A stretch of 54,328 nt of DNA from the IMG/VR virus record IMGVR_UViG_3300021602_000009, positions 1-54,328 of that record. One strand, written 5' to 3'. A model generated the notes under the pieces. The model did not search any database. It was not told where the DNA came from and worked only from the letters and a program-made list of their open reading frames with translations. Origin of the DNA: a virus (Duplodnaviria; Caudoviricetes). A program made the position numbers and the translations under genes. Shown here piece by piece: positions 2,347 to 47,600 of this stretch; position 1 is the first letter of the stretch, and each line of letters opens with the position of its first letter.

Positions 2347-2571
2347 TTAATAGAATAACACTATAATTAAATTTATAGTGCTATTTTTAATAGTTTCGAG
2401 CATTTCCATAAGCGCAACAGAGCACATTCGGGGAAAATCGAAAAACAATCCGATGGAATAATAAAGTTGATTGGGGTTTAATCCGAAGAAAATTTCAACA
2501 CTTTCGCAGTTTGGCGTGGAAATATGCATACTATTATTCTGCATATTTACATTTTCATTGTTCGTTGGCAT
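2347..2571 (-). CDS. Small hypothetical protein (74 aa) downstream of a structured leader
   Basis: ORF track; its start codon lies in a 12-nt sequence complementary to the upstream leader. Confidence 0.45.
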   Translation of the reverse strand: MPTNNENVNMQNNSMHISTPNCESVEIFFGLNPNQLYYSIGLFFDFPRMCSVALMEMLETIKNSTINLIIVLFY

Positions 2572-2780
2572 TTATGAATGAAAATATAAATGAATAAAAA
2601 GAAGAAAGGCTATCCTTCCCCATCCGCGCCAACGAACAAATTATAACACAAGTGTCATAACCCACAGGGGAAAGATAGCCCATTATCCTTGCAGAAAACA
2701 TGCAACCTATAGCCATAAAAATGGCTATGACATAATTGTGTTTTATAAAATATCCGTTGGCGTTGGATTCTGCAAACATA
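2558..2780 (-). ncRNA. Candidate structured leader or c4/CI-like antisense RNA
   Basis: TAnnTTTG-type promoter box at about 2773-2780 (minus), several stems (about 2608-2620/2668-2680, 2641-2660, 2710-2728) and an inverted repeat 2558-2569/2628-2639. Confidence 0.4.
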
Positions 2781-3070
2781 CAATAATAATTTAAAATCGC
2801 AATAGAAAAATAGAAATATTTTGTAATAAAGTTTTGATATGTAGGGTTTTGGTTGCATTTGTAGGAAAAATCAGACATATTAAGAAAAAGAAAGTCATCA
2901 ATCGAAAAGCTGCTTAGTGTGGTGATTAGCAGCGAATCAATTAATGACTTCTTATATTTTAATTCAACAATCACCACAAAGTTGAACAGGATATGTATGT
3001 ATTTCTTTGCAAATGTAGGAAATAAAATGCAATAAATACATAAAATGTCGGATAAATACGACATTTTATG

Positions 3071-3531: not shown

Positions 3532-3570
3532 AAACCCCTCCGCTTCGCTCGTCCCCTTAAAAAGGGGACA
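3532..3570 (+). repeat. REP-like palindromic repeat, family A
   Basis: AAACCCCTCCGCTTCGCTCGTCCCCTT-loop-AGGGGACA; six copies in the genome. Confidence 0.85.
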
Positions 3571-4529: not shown

Positions 4530-5378
4530 TTATACACGTTGAGAACAGATATTGATATTATTGATAGGCGAAAATACACGGCTAATGGTATTAGTTGATA
4601 AATGCGTGTAAATCTGCGTGGTTTTTTGCGATTTATGTCCGGCAATTTTCTGCACCATAAATAAATCTGTACCCGCTTCGACCATATGCGTAAAAGCACA
4701 ATGCCGGAGTAAGTGCGGATAAATGCGTTTTTTGATATTTGCTTTACGTGCTAACTTTTTGAGCGTAGTACCCACACTTGTTTCGGAATACTGCGCGTCG
4801 AACTGACCATTTAAAACATAGATTTTGGATTTATATTCTTCCCAATATTTTTCGAGCAAAGGAATAATAATCTCCGGCAACATAACCTGGCGATCCTTTC
4901 CACCTTTGGCATCAATCACATTAATAATCATACGGCTGCGGTCTATGTTTTCCCATTTCAGGTTGAGCAGTTCCGAAATACGCAAACCAGTACTGTACAG
5001 CAACGACAATACAACTTTGTGCTTAGTATTATCGCACACGTCGAACAGCATCTGAATTTCCTCCTGGCTGAAAACAATGGGCAGTTTCGTACTTTTACGC
5101 GGATAAGGTACGTTATCCAGTTTCCGCGGTTGGTGCCCAACTTCATTGTAGAAAAACTTTATAGCACACAATGCAGCCCGGTGCGAAGCTGAATTTTTAA
5201 TCTGTAACAAATAACTTTCAATCTGTTTCGCTGATATTTCGGAGGGTTTTGTAGCTGCCTTTTCGTGATACTTCAAAAACTTATCAATTTGCGCCACATA
5301 ACTTTCCTCTGTATTATGCGAATACTTCCGAAGCTGTATTGCTTTGGAAAGTTGGTTTAAATAGTTTCCGATATTCAT
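4530..5378 (-). CDS. Tyrosine recombinase, integron-integrase-like (N-terminal SAM-like domain, no IntI-specific insertion)
   Basis: LRKYSHNTEESY N-terminus; catalytic motifs GLRISE, KGGKDR, HLLRH, GH and TTQIYTH; 282 aa; divergent from a cassette array. Confidence 0.9.
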   Translation of the reverse strand: MNIGNYLNQLSKAIQLRKYSHNTEESYVAQIDKFLKYHEKAATKPSEISAKQIESYLLQIKNSASHRAALCAIKFFYNEVGHQPRKLDNVPYPRKSTKLPIVFSQEEIQMLFDVCDNTKHKVVLSLLYSTGLRISELLNLKWENIDRSRMIINVIDAKGGKDRQVMLPEIIIPLLEKYWEEYKSKIYVLNGQFDAQYSETSVGTTLKKLARKANIKKRIYPHLLRHCAFTHMVEAGTDLFMVQKIAGHKSQKTTQIYTHLSTNTISRVFSPINNINICSQRV

Positions 5379-5404
5379 TGTATAAATAGTTTAAAGTTAG
5401 TTAG

Positions 5405-5440
5405 TTGTGGAGTGGTGGGGATAGATATGAGTTAGGTGCA
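5405..5440 (+). other. attI-like primary recombination site (putative crossover G5431/TT)
   Basis: GTTAGGT core 52 bp upstream of the recombinase start, with no preceding attC-type hairpin; first boundary of the array. Confidence 0.6.
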
Positions 5441-5455
5441 ATTGTTTTGTTTAAA

Positions 5456-6109
5456 TTAAAAAGCCAACGCACTCTGCAAATTTTCCAAATTTGTAAAAGG
5501 TTTAGTCCATTGCTCTGCCATAGCTTTTGCAATACCTTCAAAGGTTTTACTTCTCATTTTACCTCTTATCTCAACAGGCATTTTAGCACACTCATATTCC
5601 CATTTACTTGTCTTTTTTACTTTACCGTTTGCATAAGTTAATGTTACAAATTCGCCTTTATCTACAATATCAGTAGGTACTAATTTCGGTAAATTTTTAA
5701 GCCATAAGCAAGTAGGTTTTTTGTTCTTATGCCCAAATTGATATGGCTCAATTATTTGGTCTGGCTTTCTGTATTTACTACTCATTACTCCTATCGGGTT
5801 TTCAATTGCTATTTTCGGTATATTACAATTAACCAATGCCATAAAAAAATCAATACCTTGTTGCTGTCTACCATCGGCTATTTTCTTTTTAAAATGAGCA
5901 GCACCACTAACAGCCAGGTGCGTACAAGGCGGGAAAAATATCCCCATGTCCCAACCCATATTTATAACTTCAAATATATCTTGTTGGTAATGCCATTCGG
6001 GGTGTCCTCCGCTACATTCTTGTATATCACAACTAAATGCTTCGTGTCCTAATTTTCGTAACTCTTTGGTTACCGCTTGTGATTCTTCACATCCTACTAA
6101 AATTCTCAT
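5456..6109 (-). CDS. Phage-type DNA cytosine methyltransferase (cassette 1)
   Basis: ILVGCEESQ and SCDI SAM-binding region, catalytic PPC, ENP motif, PYQFG and KPTCLW. Confidence 0.8.
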   Translation of the reverse strand: MRILVGCEESQAVTKELRKLGHEAFSCDIQECSGGHPEWHYQQDIFEVINMGWDMGIFFPPCTHLAVSGAAHFKKKIADGRQQQGIDFFMALVNCNIPKIAIENPIGVMSSKYRKPDQIIEPYQFGHKNKKPTCLWLKNLPKLVPTDIVDKGEFVTLTYANGKVKKTSKWEYECAKMPVEIRGKMRSKTFEGIAKAMAEQWTKPFTNLENLQSALAF

Positions 6110-6169
6110 AATTATATTTTTAAAATCCTCCCTTTTTTTAATTTAAACAAAACAACTGTTCGCTTCGCC

Positions 6170-6245
6170 ACCTAACAGCACCTAATGTCAAGCGGCACAA
6201 ACTAACCGATTATTGCCGCCAGCCATTAGCTGCAAAACGTTATAA
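6170..6245 (+). other. attC-like site 1
   Basis: ACCTAAC...GCACCTAATG/GCGGCA...TGCCGC/CATTAGCTGC...GTTATAA. Confidence 0.8.
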
Positions 6246-6285
6246 GCAAGTGCTACATTCGTGCTAAATTGAAAGTTCATTGCTC

Positions 6286-7056
6286 TTAATCCGTTTTAAT
6301 AATTTTTTCTTCCCAACGCTCTTTGAGTTTTTCAAACTCATTAAGGTTTTTTTCTACCAAAACAACTGTTCTGTCATTTTCAACACCAATTGCAGTTGTA
6401 CCGCTTCCTGCTGTAAAGTCTAAAACTACATCACCTTTTTTTGTATAGGTTTCAATGATGTATCTACAAAGGTCTTTTGGTTTCTGTGTTTTGTGCCAAG
6501 TCTTACCTTCGCTTTCAGCAGTCTTAAAATATTGAACGCTTCGTGGGTATCTTAGTCCATCACTTTTAACTTCAACTTGTTCAAAACTTCCATACACATC
6601 ATTTTCTGTTTGTTGTTTTCTAACACCTTTATTGTAAGCAGTACCTTCTGTCATTTGTGGGTAATAAACAGGTGTTCCTTTGCAAAACACAATAATATCT
6701 TCGTGAGCAACCAATGGTCTTTTTTTAGCGTTTAGAAATCCTGTTGCTTTTGATTTTTCCCACACCCAAGTATATTTAAACATTTTGGGGTTGCTCATTA
6801 TCAAAGCACTTGTAAATGGTTGCTGTGCGTGAAATACTATTGCTGTATTTTGTTTTGCAATCCTAATTACTTGCTCCCACATTTTATCAAATGGTATTAC
6901 TTCATCCCAACTGCATTGTGTAGTCCCAAAAGGTAAATCACAATAAATTAGGTCTATACTTTCATTTTTAAGTTTTGGTAAAAAATCAAGTGCATCTTCG
7001 TTAAAGATGTTTAATTTCCCCTCGCTCAAAAAATTATTAAAACTACTATTCTGCAT
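6286..7056 (-). CDS. N6-adenine/N4-cytosine DNA methyltransferase, beta class (cassette 2)
   Basis: Motif IV variant DLPF comes before HKTQKP and motif I DFTAGSGTT. Confidence 0.88.
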   Translation of the reverse strand: MQNSSFNNFLSEGKLNIFNEDALDFLPKLKNESIDLIYCDLPFGTTQCSWDEVIPFDKMWEQVIRIAKQNTAIVFHAQQPFTSALIMSNPKMFKYTWVWEKSKATGFLNAKKRPLVAHEDIIVFCKGTPVYYPQMTEGTAYNKGVRKQQTENDVYGSFEQVEVKSDGLRYPRSVQYFKTAESEGKTWHKTQKPKDLCRYIIETYTKKGDVVLDFTAGSGTTAIGVENDRTVVLVEKNLNEFEKLKERWEEKIIKTD

Positions 7057-7090
7057 AATTCAAAGTTTATCGTTTTTAATCCGCACCAGC

Positions 7091-7157
7091 TTATAACACC
7101 ACCTATACGCAAGTTTTGTGAAAAACAAAACCTGACGTATAGCTGTAAACGTTAGGT
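7091..7157 (+). other. attC-like site 2
   Basis: TTATAAC...CTATACG/GTTTTGT...ACAAAAC/CGTATAG...GTTAGGT. Confidence 0.8.
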
Positions 7158-7243
7158 GTAAGCGTGAAAAAAAGAAAAAGAAAACATTGATATAGAATTA
7201 TTAGCACAAATTGTAAAAGTACAAACAAATTAACATTAAATCC

Positions 7244-7579
7244 ATGAAAGTAAAAGACATTAATTATTACGTGAAATTCATTTTTTCCTCTCTTGACGGA
7301 CAGTTTTGTTTATCGACAACTGACTTAGAAGTTCTGAAACTCATTAAATCAGAAAAGACAAACGAATCCAAGAGAAATTATACAATTGGCGACATTGTCT
7401 ATTTCGACTCAAACGAAGAAAGAAACCAAAAATTAAAAGTAACCGATGTTAGAATCAGACGATTAGTTGATGACACCGAAAATCTTAAATACGGATTTGA
7501 TTCTTCTGACTGTGTAAACATGTTTGGCGAAAATAAAGAAGCACTATTCATTATTCACGTCACTATAGAAAAGATCTAA
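7244..7579 (+). CDS. Hypothetical protein (cassette 3)
   Basis: AT-rich ORF oriented opposite to the surrounding phage operon. Confidence 0.7.
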   Translation: MKVKDINYYVKFIFSSLDGQFCLSTTDLEVLKLIKSEKTNESKRNYTIGDIVYFDSNEERNQKLKVTDVRIRRLVDDTENLKYGFDSSDCVNMFGENKEALFIIHVTIEKI

Positions 7580-7823
7580 CGAATCGTTGATTTCTTTTCG
7601 TTCGACTTTTAAAACATTGACAATATAACTCAAAAGAATATGAGAGAATCTTAGGTTATCATAACCGCATTTTGACTTGATTTCGTTGATATGAAAATTA
7701 AATGTTTTACCGTTGAAAGACATAGTATTTATTAGGTTGACCTTACGACCTAAAGGTTTAAATTGTAAGAAAATAAAAGATTTAAAAATAAAATGAATTG
7801 TAAAATAAATTAAAAATAATGTT

Positions 7824-8321
7824 ATGAAAAAAGTCGTAAAGAACAAATTTATTTTAATTAGCTTGATTAGTTTAGGCTATTTATTGACGTCATGTGGAAC
7901 TTTAAATGTGTATGTAAACCAGAGTTCAACATATTCCAAGAAAAATCCAATTACGATTAATCAATCTTCAGATGATCAAAGTGGAACATTAGGAGAATTA
8001 CAATTTCTTTTACAGTCTAATGGCTACAAATTAATGTCTTATGGTGCCGCTAAAAAAGCTCTAAACTTAGACACAGAAGCTCATAGCAGCACTTTTCATG
8101 GAGAAATTACAAATTCAACAACATTTAAGTCTGTATATGTTTTAAATTTAAATTATACTTATTACTGGGATTCATTCTATTATGCATATAGAAGTTTCTC
8201 ATCTACTATAACTGATTTGAGAACAGGTGAAATAATTATGACAGCTAATTTTAGAGGTGATAAAAGTTGTCGTGCAGTTCTAACCGAATTAGTTGATAAA
8301 ATGAATTCAGTTATATTATAA
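7824..8321 (+). CDS. Putative lipoprotein (cassette 3)
   Basis: Basic N-terminus, hydrophobic stretch and LTSC lipobox. Confidence 0.75.
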   Translation: MKKVVKNKFILISLISLGYLLTSCGTLNVYVNQSSTYSKKNPITINQSSDDQSGTLGELQFLLQSNGYKLMSYGAAKKALNLDTEAHSSTFHGEITNSTTFKSVYVLNLNYTYYWDSFYYAYRSFSSTITDLRTGEIIMTANFRGDKSCRAVLTELVDKMNSVIL

Positions 8322-8383
8322 TAATTAACACGAAAAGGTATCAAATCATTGGTGAATTAAACGTAAAGACTAAAACGCCTAAC

Positions 8384-8515
8384 ACCTAACACACGCCTAT
8401 GTGCTTTGGCGGCTGACGTGCATTTAGCGGTCTTTGCTCCCGCATTCACTTTGTCGTTCCACGACAGCGAATGCTCCCGCAAACCGCCAAATGCCCATAG
8501 CCTCGGTCGTTAGGC
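8384..8515 (+). other. attC-like site 3
   Basis: ACCTAAC...CTATG/TTTGGCGG...CCGCCAAA/CATAG...GTTAGGC, with an inner stem TGTCGT/ACGACA. Confidence 0.8.
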
Positions 8516-8520
8516 GTAAT

Positions 8521-8730
8521 TTACCACAACTTAACTGTGATAGTCGCACATAATAGGCATAACGAAAATCCATTTTTTCCGTAAGCGAAGTATATAATTG
8601 GAAAATGTCTATATCCTTCTTTTGAAAGGTGTCCAAACTTATAATCAAATTTAAAACTACGCCTGACATCGGCTAAAACTTCATTGCCGTTTTCGTGCTT
8701 ATTCATAGCTTTGTAATCTCTTTCATCCAT
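8521..8730 (-). CDS. Small hypothetical protein (cassette 4); start lies inside the attC-like loop
   Basis: The ORF reads through the left box as LADVRRS, and its stop sits just inside the cassette boundary. Confidence 0.6.
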   Translation of the reverse strand: MDERDYKAMNKHENGNEVLADVRRSFKFDYKFGHLSKEGYRHFPIIYFAYGKNGFSLCLLCATITVKLW

Positions 8731-8793
8731 TTTTGTAATTTGAGAAGTTTCTGTGTTTTAATCGGCAACGCAGTTTAGCCGTGTCCGTTATGG
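8661..8793 (+). other. attC-like site 4 (left box variant GCCTGAC)
   Basis: CGGCTAAAACT/TTGCCG...CGGCAA/AGTTTAGCCG...GTTATGG. Confidence 0.72.
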
Positions 8794-8800
8794 CAGCAAT

Positions 8801-9079
8801 TTACACCACCTCATATTTACTCAATCGTTTCTCCAGTTCGGCAATACGTTTTTCCTTTTTATCAGCCCAGATGCGGTAGTTTACCGTCATAGCTTTTATT
8901 TGGATAAGTAAGCGGTCGATTTTATTCAGTGCAATTTTGAGTGGAGAGGAAAACTGACCGTTTTCAGGATCGTGAATCTGTTTGTGCAGAACAATGTGTA
9001 GTTGTTGCGGTGCAGATGGTTTTGTTTCCATAATCATAAATTCAGGAAACATGGTCTGTTGAATGGCGTTGTTTTGCAT
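8801..9079 (-). CDS. Hypothetical coiled-coil protein
   Basis: Tightly packed in the leftward operon. Confidence 0.65.
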   Translation of the reverse strand: MQNNAIQQTMFPEFMIMETKPSAPQQLHIVLHKQIHDPENGQFSSPLKIALNKIDRLLIQIKAMTVNYRIWADKKEKRIAELEKRLSKYEVV

Positions 9080-14300: not shown

Positions 14301-17300
14301 ATGGAAATACTAACATCATTAAAAACGCCTGTAAATACTTTAGCAGATTTATATTCAAATTTCAAAGATGGAGGAGAATCCGGTTGGTTTACGTTTGCCG
14401 GTACCGATGCTAAATTTTATTTTTGGAATGGTGAAAAATGGAAGGAATTGATTTATACCACCATTACTGAAGATACGAATAATGAAGGACAGTATTATTA
14501 CGCAGGACTGATTGATGGATTATCAGGTACGTTTCATCTGATAAATTACTATAATTATAATAATGCGTTGGTGCGCGTATTGCATCATGTACAAACAAAT
14601 CAGGTATTTTACCGTGGCGAAACACTTGTTTCAATATGGGAAACTCCTGACATAAGCATTGCATCGCCAACCGAATCGGACGTAGTTGTAATTAATGAAT
14701 TGCAACGGTACCAAAACGAGCAACAGCGAAAGACCAATGAATTAGAACGGATTGATGCTGAATTAAACAGAGAAACACAAGAAGGAGAGCGACAAACTAC
14801 ATTTACGGAAAATGAATCAGAACGTCAATCAACCTTTGAAGAAAATGAGAATACCCGGCAAGAAAACGAAAATACCCGCATTAATACCGAACAGGACCGT
14901 GTAAGCGCAGAAGGAGCCAGAGTAATCGCTGAAAATTCACGGGAAGAAAATACAGAAACAGCTATACAAAATGCTGAAAACGCAACAAGCTCAGCCAACG
15001 CAGCAGCCGCAGCAGCTCCGAAAACTATCACACTGATATCTATTACCACCCTGCCTTCAGCAAGTAGTCATTCGGTTGGAGACAAAGCATATCAACTATC
15101 AGATAAAAAAATATATACTATTAGCAATACAGGTGATGAGTGGGTGGATGAGGTAACGCCACGGGAAGTTGACCGGTTTATTTTTAATGATGTAGAGTAC
15201 CAATTTTCAAATAATCAACTTATTCATACCGATAATGGTATAGTTTCAATTGCCCGAACTTCCGGAAACGGAGCTGCCGGCACGGATGATACTTATACCA
15301 TCACTTTTACCAATGGAACAACAACTACTTTCGTAGTGCATAACGGTAGTAATGGTACTAACGGAAATAACGGTAAAGGAATTACTTCAATTACCCGCAC
15401 AAGTGGCACAGGCGCAGCCGGAACTACCGACACCTATACGATTACATTTACTGATTCAAGTACTACTACATTTCAGGTAGTGAATGGAGCGAATGGAACG
15501 GGTGCAACTGTGGAAAATGTAAGAAGTCAAAACCCTGCAAAAGTACCCAGCAGTAAGTTGATGGATGATGAATTGAATAAGAAAGCTGTTTTTAATGTAA
15601 CTACAGAAGTTCCTTTATCAGCAGGCCAATATTATACAGCCACTACAGCCAGAGCTGCTGTGCCTACCGGAGTGAAGAAATTAGGATTGGAGATTACTTA
15701 TGCAACCAGTGCAGGTGTGTGGGTGAGTGAGAAGTTTGTGGGGAGTGATGTGGCAAATTGGAATGATTTTGGTTTTTGGTCAGATATGTTTGTAAAACAA
15801 ATATCGCTACAAAGCAAAAACTTATTCAATAAAGCTACGGCTGCATTAGGAACTCTCACGAATGGCATTTTTGCAGCAGGTGGAACGAGTTGGTATGCAT
15901 CTGATTTTATACCTGTGACTGCAAGTACAAATGTTTTTGCACCAAGTGGATGCACGGTTTACCAGTACGATTCCGCAAAAAATTACATTGCAGGTTCATC
16001 ATCATCTCCAAGTGCATATTTTACAACACAAGCTACTTGTGCTTATTTAAGGGTTTCGATTTTCTACACAGTTTTAAATACTTTTCAGATTGAATATGGA
16101 ACAACATCTTCAAGTTATGCTGCTTATTCAAGAATAGTCAGATGTTCATCTATTGGCAATGAAACTGTTGTTGTTTTTAAACCAGACACTACTGATAGTG
16201 ATTTATTGGCTTTATTTAATAGCTATTATACTAAAACTGAAATTATTGCATTAAAACCAAATACAGTTGTAACTCAAAGCAAAAACTTATTCAATAAAGC
16301 TACGGCTGCATTAGGAACTCTCACGAATGGCATTTTTGCAGCAGGTGGAACGAGTTGGTATGCATCTGATTTTATACCTGTGACTGCAAGTACAAATGTT
16401 TTTGCACCAAGTGGATGCACGGTTTACCAGTACGATTCCGCAAAAAATTACATTGCAGGTTCATCATCATCTCCAAGTGCATATTTTACAACACAAGCTA
16501 CTTGTGCTTATTTAAGGGTTTCGATTTTCTACACAGTTTTAAATACTTTTCAGATTGAATATGGAACAACATCTTCAAGTTATGCTGCTTATTCAAGAAT
16601 AGTCAGATGTTCATCTATTGGCAATGAAACTGTTGTTGTTTTTAAACCAGACACTACTGATAGTGATTTATTGGCTTTATTTAATCCGAAATTATATGGC
16701 AAAAATTATCTAGCTATTGGAGATAGCGTTACAGCTGCACTGAATTATCAAGTTAAGGTAGCAAATTCATTAGGTATGAATTTGACAACACATGCATTAG
16801 GTGGTATTGGTATAGTGGCAATGGTTGATGGTGCAACTGATATTGCTGCATTAACTCCTACTGATTTGGTTGGAATTGATATAATTACATTTTTTGGAGG
16901 TTTAAATGACAGAGGGTTAGCAGATGGAGTAGTTACGGACTTATATCCAACTCAAAATACTTTGGCAGGTAAGTATAATTATGCCTTAAATAAATTATAT
17001 ACACTTGCTAATTCTGCTGGCAATACTACTTTAAATATAGTAGCAATTGCACCCTATAAATGTGGCAAATATGGTTGGATAGATGCAGATGGAGATGATG
17101 AATATCCAATTGGTTCAGGACGTAATTTATTAACCCAAGTTCAGATATTAGAAAAAGTATGTGAACGTAAAGGTGTACCTTTAATTAATTTATATAAGAA
17201 TTCTGGAATCAATGAATTCACATGGAATATTTACGGCGGTTCTAACTCTGCGACTAATCAATATACTTATATTGGCGAATTTGCCTCAATTGAATTATTG

Positions 17301-17486
17301 CCATCAGGGACTTTAAATCAAGCTGCAAGAGTCGTCGGAGTTGCTTATGCATATATCCACAATGGAACGCAATGGGTTTATGGTTCTAATCCTTATCCAT
17401 GGAATGCTGACCAATTACATTTATCGGAAGCCGGTCATGCTAGAATTGCAAGTATTATATCATCAAATTTGAAAACAATAATATAA
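14301..17486 (+). CDS. Tail fibre/spike with a C-terminal SGNH hydrolase domain
   Basis: Coiled-coil region, two GxxSIxRTSG..DTYTITFT repeats, a duplicated 137-aa module, and GDSVT, GGLND and DQLHLS motifs. Confidence 0.8.
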   Translation: MEILTSLKTPVNTLADLYSNFKDGGESGWFTFAGTDAKFYFWNGEKWKELIYTTITEDTNNEGQYYYAGLIDGLSGTFHLINYYNYNNALVRVLHHVQTNQVFYRGETLVSIWETPDISIASPTESDVVVINELQRYQNEQQRKTNELERIDAELNRETQEGERQTTFTENESERQSTFEENENTRQENENTRINTEQDRVSAEGARVIAENSREENTETAIQNAENATSSANAAAAAAPKTITLISITTLPSASSHSVGDKAYQLSDKKIYTISNTGDEWVDEVTPREVDRFIFNDVEYQFSNNQLIHTDNGIVSIARTSGNGAAGTDDTYTITFTNGTTTTFVVHNGSNGTNGNNGKGITSITRTSGTGAAGTTDTYTITFTDSSTTTFQVVNGANGTGATVENVRSQNPAKVPSSKLMDDELNKKAVFNVTTEVPLSAGQYYTATTARAAVPTGVKKLGLEITYATSAGVWVSEKFVGSDVANWNDFGFWSDMFVKQISLQSKNLFNKATAALGTLTNGIFAAGGTSWYASDFIPVTASTNVFAPSGCTVYQYDSAKNYIAGSSSSPSAYFTTQATCAYLRVSIFYTVLNTFQIEYGTTSSSYAAYSRIVRCSSIGNETVVVFKPDTTDSDLLALFNSYYTKTEIIALKPNTVVTQSKNLFNKATAALGTLTNGIFAAGGTSWYASDFIPVTASTNVFAPSGCTVYQYDSAKNYIAGSSSSPSAYFTTQATCAYLRVSIFYTVLNTFQIEYGTTSSSYAAYSRIVRCSSIGNETVVVFKPDTTDSDLLALFNPKLYGKNYLAIGDSVTAALNYQVKVANSLGMNLTTHALGGIGIVAMVDGATDIAALTPTDLVGIDIITFFGGLNDRGLADGVVTDLYPTQNTLAGKYNYALNKLYTLANSAGNTTLNIVAIAPYKCGKYGWIDADGDDEYPIGSGRNLLTQVQILEKVCERKGVPLINLYKNSGINEFTWNIYGGSNSATNQYTYIGEFASIELLPSGTLNQAARVVGVAYAYIHNGTQWVYGSNPYPWNADQLHLSEAGHARIASIISSNLKTII
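15810..16685 (+). repeat. 411-bp direct duplication (15810-16220 and 16275-16685)
   Basis: The copies appear identical by eye; period 465 bp, in frame. Confidence 0.92.
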
Positions 17487-19228: not shown

Positions 19229-19267
19229 TTTACGAAGGAATGAGATATGAGTATTTAATAAGATAAA

Positions 19268-19572
19268 CAGGTTCGTTGAAATTTTAGAGAAAGTTTGTTT
19301 GGACAGGGGTTCGACTCCCCTCACTTCCACATCATGCCAGTTACATGTTAGCTAACCCGTCGCTTTAGTACGGTGCTAAACTCACTCAAATTGCCTTTAG
19401 ATAGTATCGAAAAGGATTTCGAAAGTTTAGCAAACCGGGGGTGTTTGGTTTTGACAGCAGATAAGTAGATTTAATGGAGAACTTGCAAGCCAATAAACGG
19501 CAAAACAATCAGAATGTTTAACCCATCACTAAGAGTGGCGGTATAACAGCCCGCAGGGAGCTAAATCCCTGC
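19268..19572 (+). ncRNA. ssrA: Circularly permuted (two-piece) tmRNA gene
   Basis: The acceptor piece GGAC-AGGGG-TTCGACT-CCCCT-CACTTCC-A (19301-19329) precedes the 5' end GGGGGTG-TTTGGTTTTGAC (from 19437). It has a G3-U pair, inter-piece helices, a tag frame at 19499-19546 and a closing hairpin at 19553-19572. Confidence 0.88.
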
Positions 19573-19624
19573 ATTGTTTGAAGAATTTTAAAACAAAAAT
19601 ATAAACCAATTAAAAAACACGAGT

Positions 19625-20059
19625 ATGATACACTTTTTTCAAAACGCAAATGCGTGGGTGATAGGCGAAACCCCGATGTCGTTTGTACCAATTGCAGCCT
19701 ATTTTATGGAAAACTCTGACAACGTAGTGCAGAGTGTGAATCTCATTCCGATGAGTAAGAATTCGAATTTGCCAACATTTAGTGCTGTAAAAATTTCAAG
19801 CATTGCAAAAAATGAAGATGGCGAACTGTACGAAAGCGTAGCAGAATTTGCAACCGCAGTAGCCGGTTATTTTGCCACTTCTACCAATCCGGCTTACGTG
19901 AAAGGTAATCCGTTCACGTATGCTGATTTTACGGAAGAGCAATTGGCAGCATTGAAAGGTGAACCAGGATTATTTTCAGTAGCAATTCCATGGTGTGATG
20001 ATTTTAATGCACTACAAGCTGCTCTTATTGAAGCAGGATTAATGCAAGTAGAAGAATAA
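19625..20059 (+). CDS. Hypothetical protein
   Basis: Contains KGNPFTYADFTEEQLAALKGEPG, a collagen-adjacent motif seen in phage proteins. Confidence 0.75.
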   Translation: MIHFFQNANAWVIGETPMSFVPIAAYFMENSDNVVQSVNLIPMSKNSNLPTFSAVKISSIAKNEDGELYESVAEFATAVAGYFATSTNPAYVKGNPFTYADFTEEQLAALKGEPGLFSVAIPWCDDFNALQAALIEAGLMQVEE

Positions 20060-22638: not shown

Positions 22639-23910
22639 TCATGCTTTTTTCGTGGGTTTTTTATTCAGCAGGAAATCAATCACTTTCCGATTAGCTTCCG
22701 AAACCTTGTTGATATTGACTTTTGTGTTGCGGTTGGTATAAATTCCAGCCATGCCGGGAGTGGTTCGACCTTGCGCTAAATCAATAATAGGATCGGGAAC
22801 GTCGAGTTCTCCGGCAATGGTAGCCCACGAATGCCGTGCCCAATAACACGAAACAAAAGAAAGTACCAGTTTCAGGTTATCATTCATGCGCCGTTGTAGG
22901 TTGCGGTAATCGTCGGTGGTATAAGTATCGAGGAACGAAAGCAGGTATTTTTTACCCGGATAACGTTTGATAATTTCCATAGCTTCCGGTTCGATACGGA
23001 TAATAACCGGTTCGTTAGTTTTATCGCGCATAATCGAAAGCTGATCATTCCGAATATCCGCACGGGTAAGAAACAAAATATCCTTCACATTCATTCCACA
23101 CAGGAAAAAGGACAAGAAAAACAAATCAATGTATTTTTTCACGTCAGGAAATTCGGAAGTATGTTTTTTGCTCATTTCCTTTAGTTCAGCCTTGAATACA
23201 TCCATGTCGAGATTATACATGTATTGCAGGTCCTTAATCGTAACGTTTCGATGTTTGGTTTTGCTGCGCTTGATTTTAAACCTGCGGAACGGATAAAGGT
23301 CATACCCAATTAAATCGTGGTCAATAGCATCATTAAAAATAGTACGGATAGCGCGCATGTACACGCCACGTCCATTTACGCTCATTCCTGTTGATTCGCA
23401 GTAAGTATCAAAGTCTTTGAGCCAACCCACAGTAATGTCGGAAATATAAAATGTTTCCAAATTGACAAACGCACCCACTTTGACCAGCATTTGCGTATAT
23501 TGTGAGCGGGAAGAAGAAGCACGAAACTTAGCAGCGTAATTGTTGGTATAGGTTGAGAAATGCAGTTTCCTGCGCTCGTCCTTATCTAATTCCTCGTAAC
23601 CTTCGTCGCCAGATTCAATAAAGCGTTTTATTTCGGTGCCGGTTTTGAATTTAGTACGAAGTAAGCCACGCAGTTGCAAATCCTCCAGTACATTTTGTGT
23701 GTATGCCAATTTGTCGGCCACTACGTTATTCATCATCACCACACGAGGAACGCCCACAATTTTTCCAGATACAAAGTTTTCTTTTGGAACTTCAATACCG
23801 GTAGCAACATAAAATGCTTGTCGGTGAAAATTGAAGCGTATTTTCACCGGATATTTTCCGTTTGCTTTTTCTCGTCGTGATTCCAGCACGACCGTTATTT
23901 TCATATCCAT
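22639..23910 (-). CDS. int: Prophage tyrosine integrase (Bacteroidota type with arm-binding N-terminus)
   Basis: YPVKIRF arm domain, SAM-like core, CGMNVKD, YWARHSWAT and a C-terminal Tyr; adjacent to attP. The start is probably 23910 or 23904 rather than 24024. Confidence 0.9.
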   Translation of the reverse strand: MDMKITVVLESRREKANGKYPVKIRFNFHRQAFYVATGIEVPKENFVSGKIVGVPRVVMMNNVVADKLAYTQNVLEDLQLRGLLRTKFKTGTEIKRFIESGDEGYEELDKDERRKLHFSTYTNNYAAKFRASSSRSQYTQMLVKVGAFVNLETFYISDITVGWLKDFDTYCESTGMSVNGRGVYMRAIRTIFNDAIDHDLIGYDLYPFRRFKIKRSKTKHRNVTIKDLQYMYNLDMDVFKAELKEMSKKHTSEFPDVKKYIDLFFLSFFLCGMNVKDILFLTRADIRNDQLSIMRDKTNEPVIIRIEPEAMEIIKRYPGKKYLLSFLDTYTTDDYRNLQRRMNDNLKLVLSFVSCYWARHSWATIAGELDVPDPIIDLAQGRTTPGMAGIYTNRNTKVNINKVSEANRKVIDFLLNKKPTKKA

Positions 23911-23925
23911 GTGATTGTGGTTTGT

Positions 23926-24258
23926 TTGAAAATTGTACAAAACATTTGACGCATTGTGTCGCAAAGTTTCGTGTTTTTGCACATTGTATTGAAAATTGTT
24001 TGAAAATGGCTTTTTAGTAGACATAAAAAAAGTGATTTAGAGTTGCACATTAAAAAATGTAATCAACTGAAAATCACTTATAAAAGTATTCTTTTTTGTT
24101 TTGTCGGGGTAGCGGGATTCGAACCCACGACCCCCTGCTCCCAAAGCGAAAAACAACAAAGTTTTTATGTTGATTATCAGTTGTATATGTTTGTGGCGTG
24201 TGTGATTTTCAATAAACTGTACAATACACAGTGTGTGTTTTGAAAATAGATTGAAAAT
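23926..24258. other. attP region with putative arm-type sites
   Basis: TTGAAAAT at 23926, 23989, 24000, 24240 and 24251, including pairs 11 bp apart on both sides of the tRNA core. Confidence 0.65.
24104..24147 (-). other. attP core: 3' half of tRNA-Pro(TGG)
   Basis: The minus strand reads GCTTTGGGAGCAGGGGGTCGTGGGTTCGAATCCCGCTACCCCGA; the 5' half is absent. Confidence 0.9.
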
Positions 24259-41689: not shown

Positions 41690-44600
41690 ATGCCAACGAA
41701 CGACAAAGTACAAGCATTATACGACCAACTAACTACTGACGGTTACAATTTAGGTGATTACAATACATTTGCCACAAAGTTAGACAATCCTGAAAAAGTA
41801 AAATCACTTTATGAAGGAATAACCAAAGACGGCTATAATGTTGGTGATTTTGATACTTTCAGTTCAAAGATAGGAAGTGCGCCCATGACACGGCCACAAG
41901 AACAAAGCTACGCACTTACTCCCGAAATTAAACAAGGGATTGATATTGGCAATGGTGGAAGCGTGAAAGATGCACAGGGAAATGTATCGACACCATATCC
42001 AAGAAAAGGGACGATAGATTCAACTTCAATAAATACACCGAGCGTGGAAATTCCAGCAAGTGAACTTCCACAAGATAATAATCGAATTGTAATACCTACG
42101 CTTGATTATGGAGTTAAGCCATTACAAAACGATGCTATAAAACCATTACAGGATTACCAACCTATAAAACTTGCAACACAAAAAGAAGCAATTAATCCAA
42201 CCAATAACCCAAAAATAGACGTAAATAAACCTGCACAGGTAAAATCACGTAATTGGGATCAACGTATTTTGGACAGTGCAATACAATCAGTAAACTCATT
42301 AGGAGGTGGAGTTGAAGGCGCAATAGGTGATTATTATCAGAAGATGCAGGATATTTGGGGATTTGATTGGATGGGAAAACTTGCGGACAAATTTAGTTTA
42401 GCTTCAGCCGAAGTCAACGAAGGAGCAAAAGATTTCAAAAAAAACAATCCAGAAGAAGGACTTCCCGAAATGATTGGAGGTATTTTACCAATGGCAGCAG
42501 CTACAGTAGCCGATGTATATACCGGTGGAGCGTTAACCCCTGCCATAATGGGAACATTTGGAGTAAGTGGTTATGGTGATGGTATTCGGATGTATGACGA
42601 CATAAAATCAGCCAATGGCGAACAAGGAGACGATTTAGCGCGAACCGGTGCAGGATTAGGATATTCAGCCGTGATGCTGGGTACTATGAACGCACTCACT
42701 AAATTTGGAGTAGGAGGAGTTCAGAAACTTGCCAAAAGTGCAGTACTTCCCGAAATAATCAGCAATGTATTCAAATCAAGCCCTAAAGCCTTTGAAGGAG
42801 GAGCAAAAGAACTATTTGAAGCATACGCCAAAGCACAACCAAGTATTGCCGGTCAACTTTTGAAGAACGGAGTACACAGTGTAGCCACAATGGAAGGAAT
42901 GGAACTTTCAAAAATGGGAATTAATGCGCTTATCGGACAAAAACAAACCCTGAAAGACTGGACAAATACAGCCACAAGTGCTGCTGTTTCAGGACTTTTA
43001 TTTACAGCCGTTGCACCTTTCTCTATCAAATATGCCAACGATGCCAATTTAGCACGTATAATGGCACAGAAAGAAGTTACCATAGCAATGGACGGTAAGA
43101 ATCCGATAGAACTTATTCCAACCAAAAACGGAATGCAAGGACGTACACCGGACAATAAACTGGTAAAAGTAACACCGGAAATGGAAAACAATTCATTTAC
43201 CATTGAATCTAACCATTTTATTGATTTATTGAAGCAATTCAAACAAAGTAAAACGGTTGATCCAAACTTAGAACGCAATGTATTCTCCAATCGTGTAGCC
43301 GGAGTATTGAAAAACTTCATTACCGATAAAGGAAATATACAAGTTGCGGTAGATGAGCAGGGAAATAAACTATATATTTCGGGAAAAGACGAAAATGGCA
43401 ATTTGATTGGAGTAAATGGAAGTGGTGAAGTCCAGCCTATACCAGAAAATGCAAAGATTGAATCAGCACCAGTTGGAGATGTTCACGAATCCATAATGGC
43501 TGAATATGATAAGCAGCAGAAAAATGGGGACAAAAGGGACAACAGCGACGTTTTACAAAACGCATTGCCCGACGGTACTGATAATATGGAAAGTATAGTG
43601 AACCCCACTATACCCGAAGACATAGACCCTATCAATCCAACTTCGCATGTACAAGTTGGAATTGAAACCTTACAAACTCAACAGGCAATGGAAAAGGCGT
43701 TGGAAGGTATGGATTTTACTTTTGACCCGAAAGTGGCAGAATTAGACCCGCAAGAACAACACGCCATTTTATTACAAGTATTGGAAGATGAAAAACTGAG
43801 CGATGAACAAAAACAATCCATATCCGATTATTTAAACAGTGTTGCGGTAAGCAAACAGTTACATGCACAAAGGCAAATAGCCAGAAACAATCAACTACAG
43901 TTTGTCAATGATGAATTACGCGGTAGTGTAAATCAAAAGACCGGCACGTTGGTAAGAGCAAACATAAAAGGAGATGAAAATGCACAAAATGTGTTTGTAA
44001 CAGGTGGATTAGCCATAAAAACAACCCCTCCCCCTTCGGGTACTCCCCTTGAAACAAGTGGAGAATTGAGAGAGTTTGAAGTTGACCCTGAAAATTCTGA
44101 CGAAACAATTTTTTATAAAACCGGAAGAAAAAACGCTAACGGCACACCCGAAGTATTACCCACTACTATTGACAATTTGGAAGTAGTGGACCAATCTGAT
44201 TTAGAACAAACCATAAGCGAAACACAGGCAGCGTGGAATGACCATTTCCAAAAACAAGATAATGGAATAGATGCTGCGGTACAAGAATACTTTGCACCAA
44301 CGACCTCCCCTAACCCCTCCCAAGGAGGGGAACAAAACCAAGACCCATTGCAAGGAATTTCCAGCGGTGATACGGTGAACTACATTGATGATAATGGCGA
44401 CCAACAAAGCGGAATTATTCAGATTGATCCGGTATTAAGGCAAGAAGGGAAAGTATTTATTAATGATGAGGAGTGGCCGATGGAGAATGTGTTACCAAAA
44501 CAAAGCCAAGAGCCAAGTGCCAAGAGCCAAGATTCTGTGGACAATGGTGACGTTGCGGACAATAAGCAACAACCAACTTCACAATATCCCGAATTACAAG

Positions 44601-47600
44601 ATGGTACGCCTGATTTCAATAACATGACCGATGAACAGGTTATCAACTATACTCGTGAAACCAAAGGAGAAGAAGCAGCAAACGCCTTAGTTCAACGACA
44701 AGTAAAACGCCTACAAGGACAAATATCCGAAAATCAACGTGCTACAGCCAAGCACACCGAAGATACAAACAAACTACTTGCAAAGAGTAAAACAATGCAA
44801 GAGGACAACGCTATTGAAGCCAAACAAGCAGCCAAAGCTATAGCATTGAAAGAAGAATTTACTACTTTGAGTACTAAGTTAGCAGAAATGCAAACCTATT
44901 TACCGAAAGTAGAAGCACCTGCACCGGTTGAAACTCCACAACAAGCACCGAAATTACGCCCTGAAATTGCTCAACTGCAAAAAGAAGAAGCGGAACGGAA
45001 AGCGAAAGAAGAAGCAGTAAGCAGTAAGCAGTCAGCAGTCAGCAGTGAAGAACCAAAACCTATTGAAAGTGCAATAAATGATGAGAATCCAGCAATTTCA
45101 GGAGAAAAGAACAAAATAAATACCCCATTCCAACAACGCCAAAACAATTTGGGCGATTACGTTGACATGGAAGATTATATCCTTAGAGCAATAGCCGGAG
45201 GATTGAAATTCAAATGGAAAACGGACGGAGTAAAAAAAGGCATGGCCGATGAATTAGGATTTGGAGATAAAGTAGGAGAAAGACGAAATTATTTAAACCT
45301 GATTGACGAAAAGAACGGAATTACCCCACAAGACTTTGCTCACAACATTTGGAATGAGTATGGAGAAGATGGCAACGCAGGAGAAATACCCGGAGTTCGG
45401 AATATGACCGACCAGGACATACTGAATTTAGTGCATGATGTATTACGTGCTACCAAGAGCAATACAAGCGCATTGGAACAAGCCGAAGCCAAACGGAATA
45501 ATTTTGAACTAACCCCCGAAGATTACGGAATTTATGATAGCCTTACTCCACAAGAAATCAATTATCTGGAACAAATACCCGATGATATATTGGAATCTTA
45601 TTTGGGAATTACTAACTTTACGCCCGAACAATTAGATTATGTAACTAATTTACAAAACGAATATGGCAAAACTAACGACCAATCAGCGAATTCAAGCCCA
45701 AGTGAACGCAATCAAGGACTTGAGAGCGAAGAATCAATCCAATCTGGACAAAGCAATAGACAAGAGGTTGTCGAACAAAAATTCTTGACAGAAAAGGAGT
45801 TTATAAAACAATACCTTTTAGATTATATTGATAAAAACGGAATTTCAGAACAAGATTTTGAAGATTCAGATTCGTATGATGATATTTTCAACGAAGCATC
45901 TGACACTTATCCTGAATATATTACCGAACTTAAAAATACAGGTAAGCTGCAAGAATGGTTTGATAGCGCAAAATTGGGTGATAAAATTTCCATACGAAAA
46001 GGAACTGAAACAGCAGGTTTTGAAGTAAATGATTTTGTTGATACTAATAAAGAAAAAAACGATTCCAAAGCAAAGCGAGAAGAAGAAAAGAAAGCAGAAC
46101 AAGAAAGATTATTTAAAAGTATTGGGATTGATAAAAAGTCAAACAACCAACCTAAAGAACCAGTTTTATCTCAACCTCAACTCGATACCCAAGAACTCGA
46201 TACCTACATAGCCGAACAAGACCACAATACCAACCCTACTGACAAACAGAAGGAAACAGGCATTTACCCGAAAGCCCGTGTAAACCTACAGCACCACAAT
46301 ATAACCATTGAAACGCTGAAAGGTACCGAACGTTCAGGGATTGACGAAGGCGGTCAGAAATGGAGCGTAACCATGCAAAATCACTACGGTGAGTTAGATG
46401 GTACAGTTGGTTATGATAATGATCCGATTGATGTGTTTATTGGTCCGAATCCAAAACAAGGGGAAATCTTTGTTGTGGATCAGATTTTGCCCGATGGTTC
46501 ATTCGATGAATCAAAGGTAATGTTAGGTTTTGACAGTGCCGAAGAAGCCAAGGCAGCTTATATGAGTAATTATTCCGAAGGATGGGACGGTTTTGGCTCA
46601 ATTACTCCTGCCGGTGATAACTTCAAGGCATGGTTGTATGATGGCAAGAAACAAAAGAAACCTTTTGCAGAATATGTGGGGACACCGAAGGCGGTTGAAA
46701 CTTCCGGGGACAATGGAGATGTTGCAGACAATAAAACACAACTCACCCCTTCCGAACGTTACGACAATGCCACAACACCCGAAGAACGCCACGCGGCAGC
46801 GGTGGAGATAGTGCAAGCGTTGGAAAAGACCTTGCATGTAGGCACAACACCGGCACAGGTATTGAAAAGTACCGACGAGTTTATGTCAACGCTCAAAACG
46901 CATATATCCGATGCTGAATACCAAAAAGCAGAGCAATACCTTGCCAGCGGACAAAAATTAGCTGCGGTACGTTTAGGCGGAAAGATACTGATAAACATGG
47001 AGCATAACTTCGATGCCAAAGTATTGACCGAATCGTACATGCACGAAACAGCACACAAAGCCTTTGATGTAGCGTTTCGTGGTGAAGATTTAAGCAACCT
47101 CGACATACCAAACATTCAGGATTATATCCCTTCTGTATATTGGGGCGAAGATAACGCCATGAAAGCCACGGAAGTAGTAGCGCATTATGTAGAAGAATTA
47201 TTGAATAAATATACTCCAGAACAGATAAAAAATGGAGAAATAGACTTATCTTTGTTGAACGAAGATGTGCAATATATTGTTACCAAAACATTAAACAAAC
47301 TTACCAATGGAAAAATTGATAGTATCGGACAAGAACGGTTCAATGACCTTAGAAGTATATCCGCAAGTGATAGAGGAATACAAGCGGACGGACACAGCGG
47401 GAAAAACGATGTGGGAGAAACTGGAGATAGTAAACCAGATAACGGAAAGCCTGGGACTGAGCCAAGGTTCACCAACGGAAAAATAATATCCAAAACAAAA
47501 ACACCAATTGGAACGGAAGTAAAAGTAAAATATAAAACTCCAATAGGTGCAGAAACAAAGATATTCTATACCGATGGCGAAATACCAATGACGTTTAATA

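Follow-up and report, generated by a model that had tools for sequence, protein, structure and literature searches.

The 54,328-bp linear virus record IMGVR_UViG_3300021602_000009 of IMG/VR (estimated 82% complete), whose whole length is called the window below, is that of a tailed phage and contains two genes for DNA methyltransferases lying in adjacent, hairpin-bounded units. These units are the first two cassettes in an array of four, covering 5432-8787, that adjoins an attI-like site and the gene of a 282-amino acid tyrosine recombinase. Integrons are gene-capture devices of bacteria, recently shown to stock anti-phage defence systems, and the phage array has many of their parts. Sequence comparisons give good support to the two methyltransferases being swappable cassettes, probably with an anti-restriction role. 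The features of the locus are collected in Table 1.

Along the plus strand the array begins with G|TTAGGTG at 5431, where there is no hairpin, and continues with cassette 1, site A, cassette 2, site B, cassette 3, site C, cassette 4 and site D. Inverted 7-8-mers frame every cassette, a consequence of the match between the R'' box of each site and the R' box of the preceding one. A preliminary description of this DNA had placed two methyltransferase cassettes in 5432-7151; these ends coincide with the G|TT junctions of the attI-like site (5431-5438) and of site B, and the junction between the two cassettes, given by site A, is 6239|6240. When folded as DNA, the minus strand is more stable than the plus strand at site A (-17.9 vs -10.3 kcal/mol), at site B (-17.7 vs -15.2 kcal/mol) and at site C (-41.7 vs -34.2 kcal/mol; z -6.7). 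A search of both strands of the whole window with R1, a covariance model of such sites discussed below, gave three matches at E < 0.1, all on the minus strand and inside 6168-8795: sites A (39.3 bits, E = 5e-7) and B (32.2 bits, E = 2.4e-5), which are members of the seed, and site D (37.9 bits, E = 1.1e-6), which is not. Rfam gave no match over 5300-8900. Two R'' boxes overlap at site C; the start of cassette 3 is complementary to one of them, and that of cassette 4 to the other. Cassette 3 itself is AT-rich (GC content 0.26-0.30); its open reading frames (ORFs) had no family match in Pfam, NCBIfam or PHROGs, ORF 7824-8321 has a lipoprotein-like signal, and between the two ORFs a very weak R1 match in the opposite orientation occurs at 7572-7663 on the plus strand (13.1 bits, E = 0.72). 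This cassette may be an inverted or composite insertion.

Table 1. Features of the array and its surroundings; positions are those of the window, and box names follow the plus strand
Feature	Position	Strand	Length	Description
Terminator-like hairpin	3607-3580	-		12-pair stem followed by a T-run; consensus match only; would close the leftward gene string
Tyrosine recombinase	4530-5378	-	282 aa	PF00589 (E = 2.3e-37) and PF13495
attI-like simple site	5379-5438	-		YAAC box 5434-5431 followed by an AT-rich, conserved core; about 52 nt from the start codon of the recombinase gene
Cassette 1	5432-6239	-		ORF 5456-6109 and hairpin site A; inverted 7-mers at both ends
ORF 5456-6109	5456-6109	-	217 aa	Open, full length; C5-like DNA methyltransferase of cassette 1
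Site A	6168-6247	-		attC-like hairpin; R'' box 6169-6176, R' box 6239-6246
Cassette 2	6240-7151	-		ORF 6286-7056 and hairpin site B
ORF 6286-7056	6286-7056	-	256 aa	Open, full length; N6/N4 DNA methyltransferase of cassette 2
Site B	7089-7159	-		attC-like hairpin; R'' box 7091-7098, R' box 7151-7158
Cassette 3	7152-8509	+		ORFs 7244-7579 and 7824-8321 and hairpin site C
Site C	8377-8517	-		Long hairpin; overlapping R'' boxes 8377-8384 and 8384-8391; R' box 8509-8516
Cassette 4	8510-8787	-		69-aa ORF 8521-8730 and hairpin site D
Site D	8659-8795	-		Hairpin; loop holds the start codon of ORF 8521-8730; degenerate R'' box (GAC for AAC)

The preliminary description had named a C5-type and an N6/N4-type enzyme without a restriction partner, and this assignment is upheld on all three points. 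ORF 6286-7056 matches PF01555 with 73.8 bits (cut-off 26.7; E = 2.5e-20) as well as phrog_67, and holds an FTAGSG and a DLPF motif; at least 8,000 relatives were found at E <= 1e-10, about 70% identical among the matches listed. For ORF 5456-6109, there was no match in Pfam or NCBIfam (PF00145 included), nothing at E < 0.5 in a sequence search of the PDB and no significant BLASTP match to a PF00145-bearing cassette ORF. It was phrog_757, annotated as 'DNA methyltransferase', that gave a match (E = 8.5e-67). Additionally, an AlphaFold model built on 25 relatives reached a pLDDT (predicted local distance difference test) of 83, and every top rank in a PDB fold search with this model was taken by C5-cytosine methyltransferases, among them M.HaeIII, DNMT3A and M.HhaI (probability 1.00, E from 2e-5). 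The triplets PPC (60-62) and ENP (103-105), invariant in the 25 relatives, are taken here to be the Pro-Cys and Glu-Asn-x catalytic motifs. The designation 'C5-type' thus holds by predicted fold and motifs, not by curated family. The ORFs scanned gave no match to a restriction endonuclease family, and a giant ORF of the phage among them has a ResIII/helicase-type match only.

The recombinase is composed of an integrase catalytic domain and a SAM-like N-terminal domain, and its residues R133, K158, H222, R225, H248 and Y257 are invariant in 23 relatives. It aligns end to end with XerA (5hxy, E = 4e-34), and its NCBIfam scores are all below the cut-offs, those of Xer equivalogs (XerA_Arch 192.6 vs 220, XerC 160.8 vs 335.15, XerD 167.9 vs 329.6) as well as those of TIGR02249, the integron integrase model (186.6 vs 265), and NF011946 (125.7 vs 435). 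The match to TIGR02249 comes in two pieces, positions 2-180 and 238-314, and in an alignment with VchIntIA (2a3v) only 21 residues of the recombinase (177-198) stand opposite 64 in IntI (179-243). Because of this alignment gap, and because positions 181-237 of TIGR02249 are without counterpart, the recombinase is, as judged from sequence, an Xer/IntI-like enzyme without the IntI-specific insertion, apparently about as close to archaeal XerA as to integron integrases. An understanding of the enzyme as a canonical integron integrase had to be given up in view of the sub-cut-off scores and the absent insertion, and its action on hairpins is therefore assumed.

Relatives of the recombinase are numerous (1,892 of 2,575 candidates at E <= 1e-20). 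In IMG/VR one is encoded in 146 of 176 candidate stretches, the best 80 of which served as loci for the survey; a few of these loci are close relatives of each other, such as L039 and L040. The GenBank phage collection yielded no close relative (all below 60% identity, and 28-32% among 25 matches listed), and a single-sequence locus search gave distant relatives only, at 28-29% identity. The closest relatives in genome assemblies, 47-56% identical, are in contigs of Bacteroidota metagenome-assembled genomes (MAGs), including Ginsengibacter, Flavobacterium, Pedobacter, Chitinophagaceae and Saprospiraceae. All close relatives occur either in viral contigs or in Bacteroidota MAG contigs, with the same layout, and none of 14 control genomes passed the IntI cut-off. 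A single 6.6-Mb Acidobacteriota MAG contig (loci L120-L135 and L148) encodes about a dozen distant relatives of about 33% identity. These multi-copy relatives are a different element; three distant loci of this type searched with R1 gave no site.

Upstream of the recombinase gene, the junction of the attI-like site is G5431|T5432 on the plus strand. The region (5380-5450) forms no hairpin, with folding energies of -0.3 and -0.7 kcal/mol. Of the 66 unique recombinase-upstream regions of 120 nt, 63 contain the motif AAC-(2-6 nt)-ATnTrT, vs 24 of 881 control windows, and the YAAC box lies at a median of 52 nt from the ATG across loci. The sequence to the left of this box differs between loci.

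In many loci, the motif of sites A-C recurs as direct repeats upstream of the recombinase gene. Read on the recombinase strand, the consensus consists of YAAC, G, about 4 unpaired nt, a stem, a variable loop, the partner stem, 1-2 nt and GTTA; in the commonest geometry 5 nt follow AAC vs 1-2 nt preceding GTT, and sites span 58-150 nt with loops that vary. In an alignment of 73 sites AAC and GTT are invariant and 13 of 13 stem pairs change on both sides, a count that is partly circular, the seeds having been chosen from upstream regions by a base-pairing filter; the covariation score is 0.399, a value attained by none of 500 shuffles (0.174), and sliding the partners gives no more than 0.227. 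First finders that relied on AAC...GTT ends and whole-site folding energy were dropped, as they missed sites A and B and returned many chance matches. A looser stem finder (926 vs 928 matches on the two strands) was useful only for revealing the 5/1-2 spacer geometry. A stem finder with this geometry (262 vs 115 matches) was still noisy, and the covariance model R1 was therefore built, which is a fairer test than the covariation count.

R1 was searched in 73 of the 80 loci, the near-duplicates L011, L012, L026, L034, L061, L062 and L072 being left out. At E <= 0.01 it gave 55 + 106 + 8 = 169 matches, every one of them on the recombinase strand and 168 upstream of the recombinase gene; these counts are lower bounds, given that the default filters missed some strong sites and were switched off in six loci only. 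The same rule is seen in the 104 matches that are not seeds: none of them is on the other strand, and 103 are upstream vs 1 downstream, the sequence searched amounting to 492 kb downstream vs 303 kb upstream. A site is present in 50 of the 54 loci that have at least 1 kb of upstream sequence, and 18 of 19 matches in the Bacteroidota MAG contigs follow the same rule of strand and position. The recombinase strand is purine-rich and folds better than its complement in 140 of 160 unique sites (mean -2.4 kcal/mol). According to the accessible text of Nivina 2016, the recombined bottom strand of classical attC sites is likewise purine-rich and better folding.

This correspondence of strands makes the orientation of the genes unusual. 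In the window, the cleaved-type AAC box is at the 5' end of the minus strand, which is both the better-folding strand and the strand of the recombinase gene. By comparison between loci, a cassette consists of one hairpin and the gene 3' of it on the recombinase strand, and the genes therefore read toward attI and the recombinase, in mirror image of a classical integron. Since the recombinase strand is the equivalent of the classical bottom strand, cassette genes would be expected on the other strand; yet 133 of 156 unique cassettes have their dominant ORF on the recombinase strand, vs 1 with an opposed ORF and 22 that are undecided. The single opposed cassette of the survey is cassette 3 of the window. 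Start codons are often located in a hairpin loop, and the hairpin site contains the ORF start in 57 of 130 cassettes, including cassette 4 of the window. In the accessible part of Nivina et al., cassettes facing the promoter are described as never seen in integrons.

The preliminary description had regarded the two methyltransferase cassettes as inverted, and this is true with respect to classical integrons, but the orientation is not special to these cassettes, being the rule of the family. It had also set the genes of cassettes 1, 2 and 4 antisense to the classical cassette direction, with which the minus-strand position of ORF 8521-8730 agrees. Of the leftward string of genes proposed for 10465-3722, the co-orientation of the minus-strand ORFs was recovered, but the plus-strand ORFs of cassette 3 interrupt it. 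The two methyltransferases may be expressed by read-through with the leftward phage genes, as had been suggested there, the evidence being this co-orientation and the terminator-like hairpin at 3607-3580; no Pc promoter was found, though no search aimed at one was made.

That cassettes are exchanged is apparent from pairs of loci that are otherwise nearly the same. The recombinase regions of L057 and L061, and those of L060 and L062, are 98.8% identical, and in both pairs blocks of 285-340 bp that are 99-100% identical occur in another order with their strand unchanged. Every breakpoint in the reordered loci is the YAAC|G of a hairpin site, even where the stems are unrelated, and the parent sequences share just about 5 nt at these points, which argues against homologous recombination as well as against k-mer assembly chimeras. 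The hairpin moves together with the gene located 3' of it on the recombinase strand. Among 153 cassette clusters, 13 occur in at least two loci, and 4 of these 13 have different neighbours or a different distance from attI.

The cassettes of the window are themselves found in other contexts. Two other metagenomes have contigs in which cassette 2 (6238/9-7097/8) recurs between unlike flanks, 96.5% identical in one and 97.6% in the other; the differences listed in ORF 6286-7056 comprise at least 17 synonymous vs at least 6 non-synonymous ones in one contig, and at least 9 vs at least 7 in the other. Agreement with the window ends at 7154 in contigs of two runs and at 8514 in a contig of another run, and yet another contig is identical over 8786-9010 and unlike the window left of 8786. 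The positions 6239, 7154, 8514 and 8786 in these foreign contigs are R' junctions. Joints with sides of 23-34 letters at 88% likeness were disregarded as repeats or other organisms, including one at 6265-7076 that leaves out most of ORF 6286-7056; one run, labelled RNA-Seq, is probably of DNA. Homologues of both enzymes are also bounded by such sites, ORF 5456-6109 in cassettes of 3 other loci and ORF 6286-7056 in at least 6 strong matches (E < 1e-40). Altogether, the comparisons support the view that the array is one of site-specific recombination, that the methyltransferases are genuine cassettes in it and that such cassettes move, and the swappable nature attributed to them beforehand gains from the reordered blocks, the breakpoints at YAAC|G and the foreign contexts of cassette 2.

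Methyltransferases are also the commonest cargo of the family. Of 130 cassette ORFs, 41 have a Pfam match, and 22 are DNA methyltransferases by this test (PF01555 in 12, PF00145 in 6, Dam in 2, MT-A70 in 1 and EcoRI_methylase in 1). A PHROGs search with 91 ORFs of the 130, in essence those lacking a Pfam match, adds 8 methyltransferases and 3 PAPS-reductase-like proteins, which brings the totals to 30 and 6, respectively. Other cargo includes the Thoeris inhibitors Tad3 and Tad6, Lar, a TET-associated glycosyltransferase (TAGT) and a radical SAM protein. A family match is lacking for roughly 60% of the cassette ORFs. The combination of five methyltransferase families with Lar, Tad3, Tad6 and TAGT leads to counter-defence as the common theme; the proposal of a shuffleable anti-restriction module fits this cargo of methyltransferases and named anti-defence proteins well. 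A check by hand for methyltransferases near attI showed no clear enrichment. One cassette (L074:4561-5541) carries a second tyrosine recombinase of 326 amino acids (PF00589, E = 9.8e-38).

It is likely, in our judgement, that the two methyltransferase cassettes are exchangeable counter-defence cargo in the four-cassette array of a phage-borne, integron-like platform. The parts of this platform would be the short tyrosine recombinase, the simple attI-like site 5' of its gene and the attC-like hairpins. By analogy with integrons, the recombinase strand would fold into a hairpin, strands would be exchanged in the AAC box at its 5' end, and cassettes would be inserted, excised and reordered through attC x attI and attC x attC reactions. 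The methyltransferases would then shield phage DNA from host restriction. A broader proposal, towards which the balance tips only slightly, is that Bacteroidota phages have widespread 'reverse-polarity' integrons, in which an insertion-less IntI/Xer-like recombinase acts on attC-like hairpins and maintains exchangeable banks of counter-defence genes; the proposed class would extend over 146 viral contigs and about 1,900 recombinase relatives.

Several points weigh against this interpretation, beginning with the origin of all evidence from metagenomic contigs and the circularity in the covariation count mentioned above. Site C is weak in R1 (10.2 bits, E = 3.5), and the R'' box of site D is degenerate. 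In the enzymes, DLPF of ORF 6286-7056 replaces what we take to be the usual DPPY-like motif, and inspection of ORF 5456-6109 by eye found no canonical FxGxG near the N-terminus, presumably the cofactor-binding motif of C5 methyltransferases; an invariant C-E-E-S-Q run is found where it was looked for. A scan for sigma-70-type promoters, with a model unsuited to Bacteroidota, was no better than shuffles (27 vs 25.8). One foreign contig (run X4) stops matching cassette 2 at the R'' box (7098), hairpin B being replaced, and this boundary is unforeseen by a strict rule under which gene and hairpin move together; possible reasons are additional exchange at R'' or a turnover of hairpins that is faster than that of genes. 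The surplus unpaired bases of the phage sites are on the arm adjoining the exchanged AAC box, whereas the extrahelical bases of classical attC sites are described near L'' (Nivina 2016, in its accessible text). Finally, the IntI insertion is held essential for integron function in the accessible part of Smyshlyaev 2021.

Among alternative explanations, one accepts the cassettes as real and assigns the methyltransferases to the phage's own biology (regulation, packaging or replication timing) or to modification of host DNA. Orphan methyltransferases with regulatory roles exist, and neither a target motif nor a host restriction system is known here. However, the cargo of the sister arrays, with its diverse methyltransferases and named anti-defence proteins, as well as the swappable and variable content of the arrays, better fits an arms race than housekeeping, so this explanation is considered unlikely. 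A second one, which we regard as quite improbable, holds that the hairpins are intergenic terminators or repeats, that mosaicism arises by homologous or illegitimate recombination at short repeats and that the recombinase serves another task, e.g. dimer resolution. The hairpins are indeed intergenic and would also fold in RNA, a conserved core of about 16 nt is common to many sites, and illegitimate recombination at GTTRRRY-like motifs was also raised in the accessible text of Qi 2023 (PMC9892861). Such events would not be expected to place breakpoints exactly at YAAC|G with about 5 shared nt, nor the sites so uniformly upstream of the gene and on its strand; the conserved attI-like junction with its variable left half 5' of the gene, and the presence in the phage of a separate 461-amino acid integrase beside a tRNA-like fragment, speak against it as well.

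There is very little room for the idea that an ordinary bacterial integron, or a fragment of one with canonical IntI and canonical attC sites, was acquired by the phage. AAC/GTT boxes, hairpins, an attI beside a divergently placed array, cassette-sized units and the TIGR02249 score of 186.6 bits would all agree with such an origin, but that score is below the 265-bit cut-off with 181-237 unmatched, the enzyme lacks the IntI insertion, 133 of 156 cassettes have the reverse polarity, the spacer geometry differs and close relatives are confined to viral or Bacteroidota MAG contigs with the same layout. A shufflon-like system that flips segments to switch genes on and off can hardly be credited: a tyrosine recombinase does adjoin repeated sites and has weak NCBIfam matches to tyrosine-type invertases, far below cut-off, but all 169 sites are in direct orientation, rearranged blocks keep their strand and an opposed ORF occurs in only 1 of 156 cassettes.

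The remainder of the window encodes a terminase, a P22-like portal, an endolysin, a giant polyvalent protein and the lysogeny-type integrase of 461 amino acids, which is separate from the 282-amino acid recombinase and adjoins the tRNA-like fragment. The latter is a hairpin-rich stretch at about 24065-24182, beside ORF 22639-24024 on the minus strand, that contains the apparent 3' part of a tRNA; ARAGORN called no tRNA there, and the stretch is probably the attP core of a tRNA-targeting temperate phage. ARAGORN also reports a permuted 'tmRNA*' at 19240-19637, which may be a false call. One frame (41690-54328; 4,213 amino acids) is open to the end of the record and another (3-2339; 778 amino acids, LPD38) is open from its start, which suggests that both together form one polyvalent protein of about 5,000 amino acids across the record ends; matches of this protein include InPase, ResIII/helicase, LPD23 and, weakly, a methyltransferase small domain. 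A GC-rich motif of 23 nt is found on the plus strand at 3535, 19191, 32735, 35422, 38796 and 51538 with at most 1 mismatch (6 copies vs 0 expected in shuffles), mostly at gene borders and once within the giant ORF. A short hairpin then follows each copy, and the motif may be a phage promoter or terminator element. On the opposite side of the recombinase, inside or beside ORF 2555-3064, a strong palindrome of 138 nt (2626-2763) has AAC/GTT-type ends; it gave no R1 match, the sole neighbouring one reaching 10.5 bits at 2736-2832. An exact direct duplication of 127 nt (15814-15940 and 16279-16405) lies within ORF 14301-17486, a structural protein with a GDSL-lipase match.

How the array relates to known systems is best seen against classical integrons (those of mobile class 1, and the sedentary chromosomal ones of Vibrio). 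Both have a tyrosine recombinase gene, a simple attI site, one-gene cassettes and imperfect AAC...GTT palindromes with a variable centre; exchange is in the AAC box (with the exception of 7098 here), and the better-folding, purine-rich strand runs with the integrase gene. Unlike them, the phage array has a recombinase without IntI insertion and below the cut-offs of the integrase models, an unpaired spacer of about 5 nt instead of 1-2 nt with the surplus beside the exchanged box instead of the attC asymmetry on the R''-L'' arm with its near-symmetric central spacer, cassette genes on the other strand that read toward attI and the recombinase rather than, as promoterless genes under a Pc promoter, away from intI, a phage as carrier and counter-defence genes as cargo. 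The Treponema-type 'atypical' integrons, as far as their accessible descriptions go, share the co-orientation of integrase and cassette genes, but their intI is transcribed toward attI and is upstream of the cassettes, whereas in the phage the attI-like site precedes the recombinase gene, and the cassettes lie upstream of this gene and read into it. By sequence, the layout of cassettes and recombinase is a third topology, besides the classical and the Treponema type.

Xer systems (XerA/XerC/XerD) have recombinases of the same domain layout and length, XerA matching end to end, and the pdif modules of Acinetobacter plasmids are likewise small modules bounded by recombinase sites in inverted repeat. 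Here, in contrast, all equivalog cut-offs are missed, and the sites are hairpins of 58-150 nt with variable loops, combined with an attI and an ordered array, whereas dif-like sites are a duplex of roughly 28 bp. With the accessory and anti-defence hotspots of phages and with orphan methyltransferases, the locus shares a variable region enriched in methyltransferases and anti-defence genes, but it differs in its dedicated site-specific recombination machinery and its defined cassette ends.

Methyltransferase cassettes in phage attC clusters are already in print. In the accessible text of Qi et al. 2023 (PMC9892861), 10,705 phage genomes were screened, with 17 clusters of attC sites lacking integron-integrases (CALINs) and five methyltransferases in phage cassettes; the CALIN of Polaribacter phage P12002L contains two methyltransferases, and one of its attC sites was recombined by IntI1. 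This attC cluster resembles the present array as one in Bacteroidota-phage DNA with orphan DNA methyltransferases, judging from the accessible description. R1 gave weak matches on P12002L (18-24 bits, E 0.002-0.04 and one E of 0.28). They precede three methyltransferase genes and a Mom-like gene by 30-90 nt, on the same strand as these genes, and the annotation of this phage includes no tyrosine recombinase. Whereas the accessible text links no integrase to phage CALINs, a dedicated recombinase clade, an attI and a uniform, reversed polarity are found here. A search of the literature, with subscription journals outside its coverage, found no phage array with a dedicated insertion-less recombinase, attI or reversed polarity.

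The locus points to phages that have an integron-like device of their own for the swapping of methyltransferases and other counter-defence genes, with a recombinase clade and a site geometry peculiar to it and with genes in opposite polarity, and it would account for the outcome of earlier searches for phage integrons, in which attC clusters with methyltransferases were found but no integrase. Three questions become testable: whether hairpin sites can be recombined without the IntI insertion, how the orientation of cassettes toward attI is set and expressed, and which of the small cassettes encode new anti-defence proteins. If the interpretation is true, the family-less cassette ORFs would be a rich source of such proteins, and the arrays would be the viral mirror image of the bacterial integrons that bank defence systems.

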